64,000 nucleotides of DNA from Escherichia phage RB49, in the sequence record NC_005066.1. One strand, 5' to 3'. This document shows positions 38,558 to 44,856 of the stretch, piece by piece (the first letter of the stretch is position 1; the number at the start of each line of letters is the position of its first letter). The notes beneath the pieces are model-generated. The model had not been told where the DNA came from, did not search any database, and worked only from the letters and a program-made list of their open reading frames with translations. Position numbers and translations under genes: made by a program.

Positions 38558-40801
38558 TTACAGCTTGCAAGATGAGCACTCGCTAGCGTCTTCCGTACCA
38601 TCAGCACCATCACGCACGTTAGCGTAATACAGGGTTTTCAGACCGTAATATTGAGCAAACAGCATATCATCTAACACATCAGCAATATCGACTTTACCAG
38701 TCTTATAAGTGCTTGGATCGTATGATGTATTGGAACTAATCGCCTGATCCACAAACTTCTGCATGATCGCTGCCAGTGTCAGATAAGGCTTGTTACCTTT
38801 CTTGATCAGTGTCCAAAGCAGGTCAATAACATCAGCATTATTCTCTACGTTCGGAATAACCTGATTAAATTGCCCTTCTTTCGATCCTTTAACCGATACA
38901 ATCCCGCGAGGCGGTTCAATACCATTTGTGCTGTTAGACACCTGAGAGGACGACTCACAAGGCATCAGCGCCGACAGTGTACTGTTACGAATGCCATATT
39001 TTTTCAGGTCTTTGCGCAGTTCTTCCCAATCCATCTCATACACCGGATCAACCAGTTCATCTACTGTCTTTTTGTACCAGTCGATAGGCAGTTCACCGCG
39101 TCCATAACGTGTTTCGTGCATCAGTTCGCAAGCACCCTTCTCTTTAGCCAGTTGCACACTAGCCTTAATCAGAGCATATTGCAAGCGTTCAAACGTTTTA
39201 TGCGTAAACTCGTTAGCGTCTTCATATGTGAAGAAATTATCCGCTAGATATGACGCAAAGTTAGTCACACCAACACCCAGAGAGCGACGTTTTTTGGCTG
39301 TTAGAGCTTGTTCTACAGGATAATCCTGATAATCTAACAGGTTGTCCAGTGCACGCACCATAACCATAGCAATGCGTTCTACTTCTTCCATATTTTCGAT
39401 ATCGAAATTACCTAAAACATATGCTGCCAAAGTACATAGGCTAATTTCTGAATCATCACGACCCATCGGTTTAGTAGGCAGTGCAATTTCACAACACAGG
39501 TTAGATTGTTTAATCGGTGCTACATTACGAATAAACGCCCCGTGATTGTTCATGTTGTCTGTGAACGTTGGGTAGATTCGACCAGTGTTAAAACGTTCAA
39601 TTGCCACCGCTAAAAACAGGTCTTCGGCTTTAACACGAGTTTTACGAACACTCGGATCTTTTTCCAGTTTTTCGTAAAGCTGGCGGAAACCTTCCTCATC
39701 TCGGAAGTATAGATCCCACAACAAGCCACCCGCAACATCTGGACTAAACAGAGTAATGTAATCCCGTTTAAGGAATCGCTCTACCATCAGGTTATTAATC
39801 TGTACGCCGTAATCAAGATGACGAATGCGGTTATCTTCCACCCCCTTATTGTTCTTTAACACAATCAGACTTTCAAACTCTAAATGCCACATTGGGTAAT
39901 AGAGAGTCGCCGCCCCGCCACGAATACCGCCTTGTGAGCATGACTTAACGGCAGTCTGAAAATGTTTCCAGAATGGGATAACGCCAGTATGACGAACTTC
40001 ACCATGCCCGATCTTAGATCCTTCCGCGCGAATCATACCAGCGTTGATACCGATGCCAGCACGCTTGCTAATATACTTGATGATTGCATTTGCTGTTTCG
40101 TTGATGCCCTGCAATGAGTCATCACTTTCAATCACCACGCACGAACTAAATTGTCGTGTTGGAGTACGCACACCCGCCATAATCGGAGTAGGCAGAGAGA
40201 TTTGCTTATTCGCAACAGCATTATAAAAATCAATCACATGTTCAAGTCTATTTTCTGTCTCTTCTTGATGTAAGCACATACCGATCAGCATATACGCAAA
40301 TTGCGGTGTTTCGATGATTTTCTTAGTGCTGCGATCCTGAACAAGATATTTCTCTTTTAACTGCATCGCACCAGCATAGGTCATTTTAAAATCAAGTTTA
40401 TGGTCGATGAATTTCTCCAGATATTCCACTTCTTCACGGGAATACTTTTGCAGAATTTCGCGATCATATTTTCCGGTTGCAATATTACGCTCAATATGGC
40501 TGTAAAAATCAATCGGTTGGAATTGACCGTATACTGATTTGCGAAGCGCGAACATTGCAAGGTTACTTGCTACATATTGATAATCGGGCGTTTCTACCGT
40601 GATGTTATCTGCGGCGACCTTAATCAATACTTTCTGGATATCATTGGTAGACATACCTTCTGTCAGAAGTGGTTCAACCATATCAAACAATTCATATGGA
40701 TCAACGTTATGACCTTCGGCTGCCGCTTCCAGAATTTTCATTACTTTTTCTTTTTCAAACGGAACAGTCAGACCGGAAGACTTAACAACATTTTTAATCA
40801 T
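38558..40801 (-). CDS. nrdA: Ribonucleotide reductase large (alpha) subunit
   Basis: 747 aa; ATP-cone N-terminus and class I RNR catalytic region; C-terminal CSSCKL-like tail. Confidence 0.85.
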   Translation of the reverse strand: MIKNVVKSSGLTVPFEKEKVMKILEAAAEGHNVDPYELFDMVEPLLTEGMSTNDIQKVLIKVAADNITVETPDYQYVASNLAMFALRKSVYGQFQPIDFYSHIERNIATGKYDREILQKYSREEVEYLEKFIDHKLDFKMTYAGAMQLKEKYLVQDRSTKKIIETPQFAYMLIGMCLHQEETENRLEHVIDFYNAVANKQISLPTPIMAGVRTPTRQFSSCVVIESDDSLQGINETANAIIKYISKRAGIGINAGMIRAEGSKIGHGEVRHTGVIPFWKHFQTAVKSCSQGGIRGGAATLYYPMWHLEFESLIVLKNNKGVEDNRIRHLDYGVQINNLMVERFLKRDYITLFSPDVAGGLLWDLYFRDEEGFRQLYEKLEKDPSVRKTRVKAEDLFLAVAIERFNTGRIYPTFTDNMNNHGAFIRNVAPIKQSNLCCEIALPTKPMGRDDSEISLCTLAAYVLGNFDIENMEEVERIAMVMVRALDNLLDYQDYPVEQALTAKKRRSLGVGVTNFASYLADNFFTYEDANEFTHKTFERLQYALIKASVQLAKEKGACELMHETRYGRGELPIDWYKKTVDELVDPVYEMDWEELRKDLKKYGIRNSTLSALMPCESSSQVSNSTNGIEPPRGIVSVKGSKEGQFNQVIPNVENNADVIDLLWTLIKKGNKPYLTLAAIMQKFVDQAISSNTSYDPSTYKTGKVDIADVLDDMLFAQYYGLKTLYYANVRDGADGTEDASECSSCKL

Positions 40802-40847
40802 ATTACCTCACTTCATATTTTAGCAGGAACAAGTTTATCCTCCATAT

Positions 40848-40865
40848 TGGGGGCTTTCGCCCCCT
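40848..40865 (-). terminator. Rho-independent terminator downstream of td
   Basis: gggggc-tttc-gccccc hairpin with flanking T-run. Confidence 0.5.
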
Positions 40866-40869
40866 TTGT

Positions 40870-42102
40870 TTATACTGCCATTTGAGCGGTGATTGCTGGA
40901 TGGCTTTGATAGTTGTGAATTTTAAAATCTTTCGGAGTCTTTGTCAATACCTCATCTAAAGATTTAAATTCCGGCAACTCAATTGTTGGTTTATCAAACG
41001 GAACACGGCTTAACTGTTCCATAACTTGATCAAAATGGTTTTTGTAAATGTGAGTATCTCCACCAGAGAAAATCAGTTCTCCTACCTCAAGATCACACAT
41101 TTTCGCTATGATGTGAGTTAACAGCGCATAGCTGGCGACGTTAAAGGGCAAGCCCAAAAAGCTGTCTACGCTTCGCTGAAACCACATACAAGACAGTTTA
41201 CCTTCATTGACGTAGAATTGTACGAACGGATGACATACACCCAACACAGCATTATGTGTTCCTTGTACGTTCCATGAGTCAATAATGATCCGGCGATCCG
41301 TTGGATTGTTTTTAATTTGTTCAATCACGTTTTGTAACTGGTCTTCCCAAATCTTCGGGCGATAGACATATTCTTCATCGTCTTTAGTGCTCGATGTGTC
41401 TACGTCCATACTAGCAAAGATCGTGGTATCTGGTGCTAAAATATCCCCACCCAGATAATCACTATCAAGCAGATAACCGAAATAACCATCATCTACCCAT
41501 TCCTGGAATCCCCACAAGCAATATGCATCATTAACAAAATTAGATTGAGTCTTCCAGTGGTCTGCTACTAAGAATAGATTATACTCAGAATCAAACTCTT
41601 CATAACGCATACCACGCCAGATAGCACATAAACGGTCTTCTGTTTCATTGGTTGGCGTAAAGTCTTCTACCCACGGGTGTTTAAATGTATGTGTATATTT
41701 GCTCTTAACGCGCTTAATTTTGATTTCACCGTGTGGATGAATCGGTTTGCGTCGCCATGCCATACCATACATATTACCGACATTATAACCATTGAATCGC
41801 AAAGGATTCTTTTCTTTCATATCAAGACAGTTGCCGCGCCAAATATCAAAGGCTTCCTCGTCAAACTTACCGCGTGTAATTTCCTGTAAGCGACGGCGGT
41901 CAAGTGATCCCTCCATAAACCATAGCAACTCGCCAATTACAGAGGCTGTAGCCATCTTTTTAGTGGTCAGTAAGGGGAAACCCTTGCTTAAATCAATTCG
42001 CATCTCTGCGCCGAATTTAGAGAGCGTACCTACCCCCGTGCGGTCTTCACGAGGCCAACCATTATCAAGAACATCACGCAATAGTTTCAAATATTCTTTC
42101 AT
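40870..42102 (-). CDS. td: Thymidylate synthase with a ~130 aa internal insertion
   Basis: 410 aa; ThyA motifs DRTGVGT, YGMAWRR, DRRIIIDSWN, CHPFVQFYV, LGLPFNVASYALL; extra segment between the YGxxWR motif and the DxRRII motif. Confidence 0.8.
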   Translation of the reverse strand: MKEYLKLLRDVLDNGWPREDRTGVGTLSKFGAEMRIDLSKGFPLLTTKKMATASVIGELLWFMEGSLDRRRLQEITRGKFDEEAFDIWRGNCLDMKEKNPLRFNGYNVGNMYGMAWRRKPIHPHGEIKIKRVKSKYTHTFKHPWVEDFTPTNETEDRLCAIWRGMRYEEFDSEYNLFLVADHWKTQSNFVNDAYCLWGFQEWVDDGYFGYLLDSDYLGGDILAPDTTIFASMDVDTSSTKDDEEYVYRPKIWEDQLQNVIEQIKNNPTDRRIIIDSWNVQGTHNAVLGVCHPFVQFYVNEGKLSCMWFQRSVDSFLGLPFNVASYALLTHIIAKMCDLEVGELIFSGGDTHIYKNHFDQVMEQLSRVPFDKPTIELPEFKSLDEVLTKTPKDFKIHNYQSHPAITAQMAV

Positions 42103-42370
42103 CCCACATCACCTTTTTCTTGTTGATTGCTTTCTTACGCAGTTTTGCTACTGTCTCGTCAATATCGATAAAGACAACGCCACGGTCGAATACAGTAGCA
42201 GGTCTTGAAATGTCGCTATTTTCCTGTACTGGAAGCCATGATGCGCTCGCTTCATCATAGAGATATTGTAAACCATAATAATCTACGGCTACTGCGTAGT
42301 TTTCACTGGTAGCCGTCCATAATTGAATAATACCGACTTTCATTATTGTTCCCGTCCGCAATGTAAGCAC
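42074..42370 (-). CDS. Hypothetical protein (start possibly internal Met)
   Basis: 98 aa ORF between td and frd. Confidence 0.4.
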   Translation of the reverse strand: MLTLRTGTIMKVGIIQLWTATSENYAVAVDYYGLQYLYDEASASWLPVQENSDISRPATVFDRGVVFIDIDETVAKLRKKAINKKKVMWDERIFETIA

Positions 42371-42436
42371 CGACTACCAGCAAACATCAAAGATTCACCA
42401 CAATGTTTGCACTCATAATCTGTAAGAATTTTCATG

Positions 42437-43006
42437 TTACGCCTTCTTACGTTCTAAGATTTGTTCGCTGATCAGGTAATCATCAAGGAAGTAATTATGT
42501 TCTTCTTTTGTTGCAAAGTCAAAATATAATTCCTGAATCATTTCCTTAGAAATACCAACATCATATTCAAATGGATCGTTGATTCCTGAACGTTGAACAT
42601 ACGTTAACACAATACGGTCCGCAAAGTCAACTGCTTTTTCAATCAGGGAAGGTCCACCAATAACACTTACCAAACCTTGCGTTTTCTCCAGGACTTTTAA
42701 CAGATCCTTTAATTCAATTCCAGTATACACATTAGGCTGGTCGCCGTTTTTGGCTTTCGGTGTCGGCTTGCTGGCATCGGTACTAATAACCACATTAAGA
42801 CGACCTTCCAGTGCTTTAGGCAGACTTTCAAAGGTATTACGTCCCATTACAACCGCCGCAAGTTCAACATCTCCCATAGTGCGCATTTTAAAGTTTTCCA
42901 TGTCCTTTTTGATTGGACGACCCCACGGTAAACCGCCTTTAAAACCAAAAGCCCAATTTTCATCTGACATTTTAGTGTCACCAATCGCAAATACACATTG
43001 AATCAT
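42437..43006 (-). CDS. frd: Dihydrofolate reductase
   Basis: 189 aa; N-terminal IGDTKMSDENWAFGFKGGLPW DHFR signature; position adjacent to td. Confidence 0.8.
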   Translation of the reverse strand: MIQCVFAIGDTKMSDENWAFGFKGGLPWGRPIKKDMENFKMRTMGDVELAAVVMGRNTFESLPKALEGRLNVVISTDASKPTPKAKNGDQPNVYTGIELKDLLKVLEKTQGLVSVIGGPSLIEKAVDFADRIVLTYVQRSGINDPFEYDVGISKEMIQELYFDFATKEEHNYFLDDYLISEQILERKKA

Positions 43007-43351: not shown

Positions 43352-43410
43352 AATATAGTCCTCACTTTGATTCGATGTTTGTATTATACACTGTTGCGTT
43401 ACGCTGTCAA
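43352..43410 (-). promoter_or_regulatory. Early promoter cassette
   Basis: TTGACA-16 bp-TATAAT on the minus strand. Confidence 0.5.
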
Positions 43411-44856
43411 CTCTTTTTCAAAAGATTTTACGATATACATGATAGTGCTCAATTCAGACGGCGCTACTGTCTCTGTCCAACCATCCGGCATATCTTCTTT
43501 CGAGATATAGGAAGTTTTACCTTTCATCGCTTCCTTGATCTTGTTCTCTAAGTCTAAGATCTTTTGACCGTCTTGTAAAGTCAGTTCATAAAAGATCTCG
43601 TGGTCGAATTTAGAAACGTTAGATTGCTGTTTCATTCTTTCTTGTGTTGTTTTATTTGTTATACCAAATTTAATTCCCACCAAGAAAGAATCTTTAATTA
43701 TTTTCTGTATATACAATACGCCTTTTTTGGATGGTCTAAATCCATAATGTGCACAATTCGGACATCCTTTACCAGATAAAAAATTTTGTGCGGATGTTGT
43801 ATATTCTCCACAATTAGAACACAACAATTTTAGATTTTTTACTTTTCCTCCTTTATAACCAGAATCAAAGCATACAAATGTTATATTATCACGGTCTTTA
43901 GATTCTTTAATAATATCGAGCATGGCTTCTTCTTCGGTTTTTAATCCAACCCCAGCACATTTAGCACACCCGTTTCTTCCATTTTTAATAGAATTTAATG
44001 ATGTTGTATACTCACCGTGTCGGTGACAACTAACTACCAAATTTTTTGTGTTTATATTTTTATAGCCATCAATAAAACCAACAACAGTTAAACCGAGTTG
44101 ATCTGCACACTCTTTTGCAAAATTAATAGCGTCTTCTTCTGAAAATGTTCTCTTAGACACTGCTTTATTTTTACTACATATAGGACAGCCACGACCCAAC
44201 CTACAGAAATTGTAATAACTGGTTTTAAATTCACCATGAATAAAACATTCAACAATTAAATTTCTCTCATTGTTTTTTACATACCCACCTTCAAATCCGA
44301 CAACTACACAATTTCCTAGTATATTTGCACGTTCGACCGCTTCTAGTGTAACAATGTTTATGTCATATTTTGGTGTTCCTTTGCATTTAGGACAACCACG
44401 CCCTTGCATATATTTGTTATGCGAAGTTTTATATTCTCCATGATGTTTACAGTTCACTATAAGATTTCTGTATGCGCTTGTTTTATATCCACCGTCGAAT
44501 CCTATAATATCTTCGGTTTCTCTTTTCTGAGACTCCATCAAAACATCGGCAAGTGCTTTATTAGTTGAGTTTCTTCTGATTTCAGCAACTCTATTGGTTG
44601 CACATTTTTTACAGCCATAGTTTTTTTCGTAATTTCCGATATTTGACGTGAAGATGTTTTTACATTTGCATAATATACATGCTTTTGTTTTAACAGAATT
44701 CCATTCACCAATAAAGCCAAGATATATATGTTTTTTGGATAATGATATTTTAATAAATCTTTTCTCATATTCCATAGGAGAAATAGCACTAGATGTTTTT
44801 CCAGTCCATTGAATGTCTTTAGCATATCTAAGAATTGTCATTGATTTAATTTTCAT
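43399..44856 (-). CDS. Multi-zinc-ribbon repeat protein with C-terminal T5orf172/GIY-YIG-like domain (putative homing-endonuclease-like)
   Basis: 485 aa; five repeats of about 40 aa of form GF.GGYK...NL.V.C..HGEY.TS.......G.GCP.C, then GVLYIQKI...FLVGIKFGITNKTTQERMKQ. Confidence 0.5.
   Translation of the reverse strand: MKIKSMTILRYAKDIQWTGKTSSAISPMEYEKRFIKISLSKKHIYLGFIGEWNSVKTKACILCKCKNIFTSNIGNYEKNYGCKKCATNRVAEIRRNSTNKALADVLMESQKRETEDIIGFDGGYKTSAYRNLIVNCKHHGEYKTSHNKYMQGRGCPKCKGTPKYDINIVTLEAVERANILGNCVVVGFEGGYVKNNERNLIVECFIHGEFKTSYYNFCRLGRGCPICSKNKAVSKRTFSEEDAINFAKECADQLGLTVVGFIDGYKNINTKNLVVSCHRHGEYTTSLNSIKNGRNGCAKCAGVGLKTEEEAMLDIIKESKDRDNITFVCFDSGYKGGKVKNLKLLCSNCGEYTTSAQNFLSGKGCPNCAHYGFRPSKKGVLYIQKIIKDSFLVGIKFGITNKTTQERMKQQSNVSKFDHEIFYELTLQDGQKILDLENKIKEAMKGKTSYISKEDMPDGWTETVAPSELSTIMYIVKSFEKELTA

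Follow-up and report, generated by a model that had tools for sequence, protein, structure and literature searches.

In the 64,000-nucleotide stretch of Escherichia phage RB49 DNA that we analyzed (NC_005066.1; the window), the td (thyA) gene of this Krischvirus (RB49-like) T4-type coliphage forms an uninterrupted reading frame of 1233 nt (410 codons plus stop), and its 410-amino-acid (aa) product, the thymidylate synthase (TS) Td, carries an in-frame insert of about 135 aa. The gene is flanked by frd/DHFR (42437..43006) on one side and nrdA (38558..40801) on the other, the usual frd-td-nrdA arrangement of the T4-type nucleotide-metabolism cluster. The td open reading frame (ORF) matched 57 phage records at 90–99% identity (best match Krischvirus RB49, 98.5%), all 57 of these Krischvirus records carry the insert, and an alignment of seven independently sequenced Krischvirus genomes shows the ORF intact in each. 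The main parts of the gene are as follows.

40870..42102, minus strand: td (thyA) coding sequence, assigned from the ORF list, PF00303, TIGR03284 and the annotation of relatives as thymidylate synthase.

41749..42102, minus strand: N-terminal TS core, residues 1–118, aligned to E. coli ThyA residues 1–82 and onward to 101, with the motifs DRTG (20–23), the clade-specific RFNGYNVGNMYG (102–113) and YGMAWRR (112–118).

41344..41748, minus strand: insert, residues 119–253 (KPIHPHGEIK...YVYRPKIWE), a single-block insertion in the alignment.

40870..41343, minus strand: C-terminal TS core, residues 254–410 plus stop, placed by the E. coli ThyA alignment and its invariant residues, with the motifs DRRIII (269–274), NAVLGVCH (284–291, Cys290), RSVD (310–313), FLGLPFN (315–321) and DTHIY (349–353).

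Td has all the core motifs of a TS, as an earlier note on this DNA, made from the letters alone, had claimed. PF00303 matched at 1e-84 (284 bits, cut-off 24.3) and TIGR03284 at 283 bits (cut-off 108), both matches being split in two, with one stretch on each side of the insert; the second PF00303 stretch is residues 254–410. E. coli ThyA aligned to Td residues 1–82 and 254–410, the latter corresponding to ThyA 110–264. The catalytic and binding residues R21, E58, Y112, R270-R271, C290-H291, R310, S311, D313, N321, H351 and Y353 are all present (in the same order, E. coli R21, E58, Y94, R126-R127, C146-H147, R166, S167, D169, N177, H207 and Y209), and the residues before the catalytic Cys are NAVLGV, versus MALPP in canonical TS. 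The set comprises the catalytic Cys-His pair, the arginines for the dUMP phosphate, the Asn that selects uracil and the active-site Tyr, Glu and His. From these alignments we infer that RB49 td encodes a working thymidylate synthase, in which catalysis would proceed as in canonical ThyA.

To place the insert, we used a MAFFT alignment of RB49 Td with the E. coli, T4, L. casei and human enzymes. The extra residues form one contiguous block (134 residues in the alignment) between YGMAWRR and DQLQ (254–257) and are not spread over several small loops; the block opens a surface beta-hairpin (E. coli ThyA residues 101–109) at a loop that has 8 residues in E. coli, 3 in T4 and 16 in human TS. The single in-frame block had been anticipated in the earlier note, whose figure of about 10 E. 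coli residues between YGxxWR and DxRRII needs correction: that interval has 25 residues, and it is the expanded loop itself that has 8. Smaller length differences around residues 66–105, in the small-domain region, are common to T4 Td and lie outside the insert block. The GC content of the insert (0.40) equals the value of the genome in the window, and base composition thus gives no sign that the insert arrived recently.

Introns and inteins are known in other phage td and nrd genes (PMC2988022, PMC10448857), and the insert could in principle be an intein, an in-frame intron or the product of a sequencing error that merged two ORFs. Rfam, run in evalue mode over 40300..42700, gave no intron family and nothing at E ≤ 10 except three chance-level small-RNA matches outside the insert, and td is thus uninterrupted and intron-free, as had been proposed. 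No Hint/intein Pfam domain was found, nor any Pfam match on the insert at E ≤ 10, and the junctions (RR|KP and WE|DQ) have no Cys, Ser or Thr on either side and no His-Asn before the downstream junction; the statement that intein signatures are lacking was therefore also correct. The reading frame is the same on both sides of the insert, and because the ORF is shared by 57 of 57 independent genomes, a sequencing frameshift or ORF fusion is excluded. By Rfam, Pfam, junction residues and the 57-genome conservation we rejected the intron, intein and frameshift readings, which as a group retain only the slightest probability.

An insert at the same loop occurs in about 35 phage TS proteins, with 125–282 extra residues, and in a whole-protein search about 25 TS proteins of 401–613 aa ranked above every normal-length ThyA. 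The closest phmmer match of the RB49 insert was the P0002 TS (85% identical, 2.1e-73), and an exhaustive phmmer search recovered further TS inserts, with E-values down to 2e-9 for long inserts. Used alone as a phmmer query, the RB49 insert matched TS inserts and, besides these, just two eukaryote-like repeat proteins of low complexity (P0121 and P0122), which we judged spurious. Short-insert relatives lie in T4-like genomes that share the gp32-frd-td-nrdA gene order (P0006, encoded on a 169-kb contig, is one example), and the phages with long forms include the Klebsiella jumbo phages KP13-7 and phiKp_21. The family is built from a stalk (PxxPHGxxxIxR ... (Y/H)xxRPxIxx|DQL), an optional N-terminal beta-rich module ending GVGYLG, a core module that is present in every member (WxxM..R.Y ... 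VCxRW.NF.NF ... LWGFQEWVDSGY ... LDKDYYGxxxYSPxTCIF) and an optional C-terminal module. The RB49 insert, which has just the stalk and a degenerate core module, is the minimal form of the family.

The long forms link this family to phage endonucleases. Long inserts matched PHROG 2081, 953 and 374 ('HNH endonuclease') at 1e-33 to 1e-20; Pfam, NCBIfam and PADLOC, scanned with the RB49 insert, long inserts and free-standing homologs, left the module unmatched, and only PHROGs models it. A tblastn search with a long insert found 1435 phage records, mostly free-standing genes of ~250 aa that carry the annotation HNH endonuclease, DNA-binding protein or hypothetical. These free-standing homologs share the N-terminal module and the core module, and some of those scanned carry a C-terminal AP2 domain. 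A long TS insert also matched gp59 of phage ICP1 (BLASTP 1e-17, 36% identity over 150 residues), and gp59, gp115-116 and gp209 of ICP1 were named the IPA-HNH class by Barth et al. 2023 (PMC10448857), who describe an N-terminal HNH domain that is atypical and so diverged that Pfam misses it, followed by a C-terminal AP2 domain. For the short forms, an hhalign comparison of the short-insert profile with the free-standing profile gave a probability of 95.5% (E 1.4e-8, insert residues 30–111), and the RB49-type profile against gp59 alone gave a weak match (E 0.039). No AP2 domain was found in RB49 Td or any TS insert, the RB49 insert does not have the canonical features of HNH nucleases (PF01844/PF13392, the catalytic His, the Asn/His metal ligands), and a sequence profile search of the PDB returned a single chance-level match (CalpT10, E 0.64). 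A zinc site in the module was also considered and dropped, the free-standing family having a single invariant Cys. A six-frame scan of the window with the profile of alignment A2, which contains free-standing proteins, found no free-standing paralog of the module. By these profile and motif comparisons, the RB49 insert is a reduced derivative of the IPA-HNH N-terminal region, that is, of the beta-module plus the atypical HNH domain.

Klebsiella phage KP13-7 (OP617745.1, match H71) has a 243-aa td insert and a second genomic match to the insert query, which is presumably a free-standing IPA-HNH-type gene alongside the in-frame copy.

Structure prediction agrees with this assignment. For full-length Td, AlphaFold2 gave a mean predicted local distance difference test score (pLDDT) of 94.5 and a predicted template modelling score (pTM) of 0.92, with pLDDT 88–98 for the insert region in context; the insert alone gave pLDDT 94.3 and pTM 0.87, with the same secondary structure as in the full-length model. 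The modeled insert is a helical and small-sheet domain (helices 153–169, 181–193 and 199–204; strands 210–213 and 228–231) held between two stalk strands, and it is predicted to be an autonomous folded domain. A Foldseek search of the viral models in BFVD matched the insert model, with probabilities near 1, to further long TS proteins and to phage proteins from free-standing genes, whose names are HNH or HTH homing endonuclease or DNA-binding protein. The best structural match of the module in the PDB was PacI, one of the minimal HNH (beta-beta-alpha-metal) nucleases, which would be expected if the module descends from an HNH fold. Of the 'added domain of unknown function' proposed in the earlier note, the added domain holds, with pLDDT ~94 both alone and in the full protein; its origin is now assigned as IPA-HNH-derived.

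These homologies bear on whether the insert might be an ordinary, lineage-specific elaboration of a TS loop with no mobile-element ancestry. The site does vary from 3 to 32 residues among insert-free TS, and human TS 'insert 1' (residues ~117–128) lies at the same loop, but the significant sequence and profile homology and the fold matches to free-standing phage endonuclease-family proteins, together with the different site of the L. casei insert (before YGxxWR), make such an origin hardly tenable. The 50-residue L. casei insert and eukaryotic insert 1 are likewise found at the surface, within or beside the small domain, and do not impair catalysis, but they measure 12–50 residues and have no independent fold or mobile-element homology.

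Within the RB49 insert, we distinguish the following elements.

41713..41751, minus strand: ascending stalk strand, residues 118–130, which leaves the TS core (DSSP on the AlphaFold2 model).

41410..41652, minus strand: degenerate IPA-HNH-like module, residues 151–231 (phmmer, hhalign, PHROG, gp59 and the motif table).

41578..41589, minus strand: SEYN, residues 172–175, a polymorphic four-codon in-frame indel (alignment of seven Krischvirus Td).

41482..41529, minus strand: DAYCLWGFQEWVDDGY, residues 192–207, the most conserved part of the insert (alignment A3 of the TS inserts).

41455..41469, minus strand: LDSDY, residues 212–216, the decayed counterpart of (L/I)DKD (motif table).

41341..41370, minus strand: descending stalk strand, residues 245–254 (YVYRPKIWED), which returns to the core at DQLQ (DSSP).

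Both stalk motifs are shared with other inserts, PxxPHGxxxIxR of the ascending strand being common to TS inserts and (Y/H)xxRPxIxx of the descending strand conserved in them. Within DAYCLWGFQEWVDDGY, the A3 columns D73, Y75-G79, Q81, E82, V84 and D85 are invariant. The segment is confined to TS inserts: of the nine free-standing proteins in alignment A2, six are gapped there, and the free-standing P0133, P0137 and P0139 have unrelated residues in these columns. We regard DAYCLWGFQEWVDDGY as a candidate interface with the TS core. SEYN is missing in the Krischvirus phages GEC-3S, G2494 and W115, and the indel sits where the model has its lowest pLDDT (75, residues 171–180).

The RB49 module has lost much of what characterizes the family. 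From 22 free-standing members we derived two family motifs, (L/I)DKD and YSPxTC, and found (L/I)DKD in all 22 free-standing members sampled, in 20 of 22 TS inserts of at least 192 aa and in none of the 10 shorter inserts (up to 174 aa). The RB49 insert has LDSDY and LAPDTTIF at these two places, and its other motifs have also diverged (WRGM for WxxM-xxRxY, VADHW for VCxxW, LDSDY for LDKDY, LAPDTTIF for YSPDTCIF). Short inserts also lack the R.YNPxxNH loop, and their YSP is changed to LAP, IAP or HSP. Most long inserts and free-standing proteins are basic, with an isoelectric point (pI) of ~8–9.5, while the RB49 insert has a net charge of −13 and a pI of 4.6 (4.05 for the core module alone) and is without the N-terminal beta-module, the C-terminal module and the basic loop. 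On the TS core tree, short forms stand at no fewer than four places (the RB49 group, P0009/P0013, P0125 and P0127), and P0009/P0013 fall inside a clade of 243-aa forms, which indicates that reduction was repeated and stopped each time near the same minimal unit. Loss of the ancestral motif and of the basic charge makes a decayed mobile-element relic likelier than a purpose-built accessory domain, and the RB49 insert would, by its charge and motifs, no longer bind or cut DNA.

The remnant is nevertheless under selection. Among Krischvirus td genes, the ratio of nonsynonymous to synonymous substitution rates (dN/dS) of the insert was 0.13–0.28, against 0.01–0.03 for the core among close relatives, and the synonymous excess in the insert was significant (binomial p = 2e-4 to 8e-3). 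At greater distance, inserts are 49–55% identical where cores are 65–67% identical. The insert is thus constrained by purifying selection, far less than the enzyme core.

Elsewhere in the family, the cassette appears to have moved. Two TS proteins with inserts of 279–282 aa (P0024 and P0025) have a canonical-type core (GDLGRVYG, MALPPCH), and their close relatives are insert-free. Contig L010, which encodes P0025, is syntenic with contig L011, which encodes the insert-free P0029 (AAA, DUF2201, DHFR, td, epimerase, methyltransferase; a terminase gene lies at the 3' end of L010). The two td cores are 83% identical, and the loop holds the 282-aa insert in L010 and the three residues RGV in L011, where the insert-free allele reads ...TGGAGAGACTGG|CGAGGAGTTGACCAA... 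around it. The L010 insert is slightly AT-richer than its core (GC 0.35 versus 0.40). Over 496 pairs, identity of the insert correlated weakly with identity of the core (r = 0.47); inserts of P0016/P0017 are 65% identical versus 45–50% for their cores, and P0021 and P0010-12 have cores that are 61–73% identical versus 27–28% for the inserts. Taken as sequence comparisons, the filled and empty contigs and the mismatched insert and core similarities suggest mobility of the cassette outside the RB49 lineage. The TS inserts group together against the free-standing proteins and share the stalk motifs and LWGFQEWVD, a segment that the nearest free-standing proteins lack. The pattern points to a single capture into td and later exchange among td alleles; the single-capture step is provisional, since shared stalk columns favour this grouping and the trees carry no support values.

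The insert-free ThyAs nearest to the P0024/P0025 core (P0027, P0034, P0044, P0069, P0112 and P0119) have unrelated loops of 26–32 residues at the same site, and the loop is thus a general hot spot of length variation in phage and bacterial TS.

Within td itself, the segment 41053..41331 (codons 258–350) contains a 277-nt patch with 92 differences (~33%) from phages KFS-EC (contig L001) and GEC-3S (contig L002), outside which td is 97–100% identical to these two phages. The patch begins 4–5 codons past the insert and is centred on the FLG|LPF codons (41149..41154; residues 317/318 in the window), which we take to be the T4 td intron and I-TevI site. The replaced segment resembles P0003-type td alleles, and these sequence differences indicate a gene-conversion or mosaic tract.

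If the insert were still an active mobile element, Td would bind or cut insert-free td alleles of co-infecting phages and so spread the insert, acting like a homing endonuclease that has neither intein nor intron. The homology to a predicted homing-endonuclease nuclease domain, the filled/empty polymorphism and incongruent insert and core histories among the long forms, and the recombinant td patch immediately 3' of the insert in KFS-EC and GEC-3S are in line with such activity. Against it, the RB49 insert has LDSD for LDKD, has lost the basic segments and both flanking modules and carries a net charge of −13, and since it is fixed in all 57 relatives there is no empty target left in the group. 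We therefore consider continued activity in RB49 to be very unlikely.

The above analyses are best accommodated, with fair but not high confidence, if an endonuclease module once inserted in frame has become fixed in RB49 td and decayed there to a relic that the protein tolerates structurally, leaving TS activity intact. In this history, an IPA-HNH-type homing endonuclease gene would have lost its AP2 domain, and its N-terminal part would have lodged in frame in the surface hairpin of td, in an ancestor of a diverse group of phage TS genes; the cassette would since have been translated as part of TS, not spliced out. Long versions (190–282 aa) have kept the invariant motif and the basic charge and show signs of movement or exchange between td alleles. 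In the RB49/Krischvirus lineage, by contrast, the cassette would have become fixed and decayed to its minimal core, LDKD turning into LDSD and the modules and basic loop being lost, so that the remnant persists as a compact, well-folded appendage on a two-stranded stalk. Moderate purifying selection would follow from this history, because only an exact deletion restores the enzyme and a misfolded insert damages an essential protein. A constraint on foldability within an essential protein may thus explain why the relic is retained.

Several points weigh against this explanation. The nuclease activity of the IPA-HNH class is itself only predicted in the literature, charge and motifs are the sole basis for reading the RB49 insert as unable to bind or cut DNA, and our trees are neighbour-joining trees without support values. 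Purifying selection and the conserved motif specific to TS inserts (DAYCLWGFQEWVD) fit a new function equally well. The top database matches included no insert-free TS from the main insert-bearing clade, which suggests that complete loss is rare or disfavoured and fits a useful domain as well as a relic.

Such a domain would be a neofunctionalized accessory module, an endonuclease-derived fold recruited for a new job in RB49-type phages, either as an acidic surface that docks Td to partners in deoxynucleoside triphosphate (dNTP) synthesis or replication, or as a modulator of the neighbouring catalytic loop. An insert dN/dS of ~0.2 with fixation in 57 of 57 genomes, invariant motifs specific to TS inserts that are candidates for the surface, and a charge remodelled from basic to strongly acidic in a way unlike random drift would all suit a recruited domain, as would the lack of insert-free clade members noted above. 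The pTM of 0.92 for the whole protein suggests that the insert is predicted to keep a fixed orientation on the core. The insert also co-occurs with changes in the core: NAVLG(V/I/M)CH and RFNGxNxGNMY (41230..41253 and 41764..41799 in the window), in place of the near-universal MALPPCH and of GDLGPVYG, are found in nearly all insert-bearing TS (P0001–P0022), and the recently filled P0024 and P0025 keep the canonical core motifs. Lying beside the active site, these substitutions may reflect co-adaptation of core and insert. In human TS, the equivalent loop (107–128) adjoins the catalytic loop (181–197), and a regulatory contact by the insert is therefore conceivable. However, searches of Pfam, NCBIfam and PADLOC gave no partner, motif or known interaction domain, the insert is about ten times less constrained than the core and tolerates the four-codon indel, and other lineages independently reached the same minimal core with different sequences and charges, which fits structural tolerance better than a shared new function. 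We regard a recruited function as doubtful, although far from negligible, and prefer the decayed, tolerated relic.

Compared with known systems, the TS inserts are closest to the IPA-HNH genes (also the HNH-AP2 class), with which they share a homologous N-terminal beta-module and atypical HNH domain, carriage by phages and an association with essential nucleotide and replication genes. Among related genomes, the TS insert is present in L010 and absent from L011, while it is fixed in the 57 Krischvirus genomes. The IPA-HNH genes are free-standing ORFs of ~250 aa with an AP2 domain, whereas the TS module lies in frame inside an enzyme and has no AP2. Inteins and mini-inteins are also in-frame segments of selfish origin at a conserved site of an essential enzyme, with full-size forms and reduced forms that lack the endonuclease, and they too must be removed precisely to restore the host gene; they differ in having a Hint domain and splice-junction residues, while the TS insert has neither and stays in the mature protein. 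The T4 td group I intron with I-TevI offers the same host gene with a homing endonuclease gene lodged inside it, but there the intron is spliced at the RNA level, the endonuclease belongs to another family and the intron site is displaced, the 3' boundary of the RB49 insert lying ~64 codons upstream of it.

It was already known that TS can carry insertions, that endonuclease genes decay and that such genes can lie inside phage genes of nucleotide metabolism. Thymidylate synthase is unmentioned in Barth et al. 2023 (PMC10448857), and the literature that we searched contained no earlier description of the RB49 td insert or of in-frame endonuclease domains in TS. What is new relative to that literature is the unspliced, in-frame endonuclease-family module in TS, the series from full-size to minimal forms and the filled/empty pair.

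Homing endonuclease genes are thought to persist in essential genes only by intron or intein splicing, or else between genes. Our results suggest that selfish genes can settle in an essential enzyme without an intron or intein, and TS is among the most strongly conserved enzymes. We raise, tentatively and as less likely than not to hold in full, a third lifestyle for homing genes, carried by neither an intron nor an intein but as an unspliced in-frame domain on a surface hairpin of the host enzyme. The long TS inserts (for example those of KP13-7, phiKp_21 and contig L010) would still be active, the chimera recognizing and cutting insert-free td alleles and thereby copying the cassette, and the RB49-type insert would stand at the decayed end of this life cycle, where it may have found a second use as an acidic surface for interaction or DNA mimicry. 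The inserts do form a graded series, from full-size, basic and motif-intact forms to minimal, acidic and motif-dead forms. Should the long forms be active, they would represent a new lifestyle for selfish nucleases and a natural enzyme-nuclease chimera whose targeting modules are programmable. Were every form inert, the inserts would still mark a site in TS that tolerates insertion, of use in protein engineering, and explain the anomalous length of td in the widely used RB49-like phages, which are candidates for therapy. For annotation, entries of 400–600 aa labelled 'thymidylate synthase' conceal a mobile-element domain for which Pfam and NCBIfam have no model.

Three further observations concern the TS family and the surroundings of td. 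Upstream of frd, a 485-aa ORF (43399..44856, minus strand) has three CapR-homology domains together with DUF723 and treble-clef zinc-finger matches, a DNA-binding architecture associated with T5orf172/GIY-YIG-type homing endonucleases (Barth et al. 2023, PMC10448857). By eye, the C-terminal sequence GVLYIQKI...GIKFGITNK resembles a GIY-YIG domain, and KFS-EC lacks the ORF and has a ~320-nt segment with a small ORF in its place; by its domain matches, it is probably a free-standing homing endonuclease gene.

Among the insert-bearing TS homologs, P0123, P0127, P0128 and P0130 have TRSG for DRTG at the first Arg motif for phosphate binding, xRY for RR at the second and the C-terminal end (L/K)(S/L)VG, and this sub-clade may act on a different substrate or catalyze a different reaction, for example as a pyrimidine hydroxymethylase.

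A 98-aa ORF with a GTG start (42074..42370, minus strand) overlaps the start of td by 29 nt; it is without a Pfam match, and its counterpart in relatives is annotated as a hypothetical protein of 270 nt.

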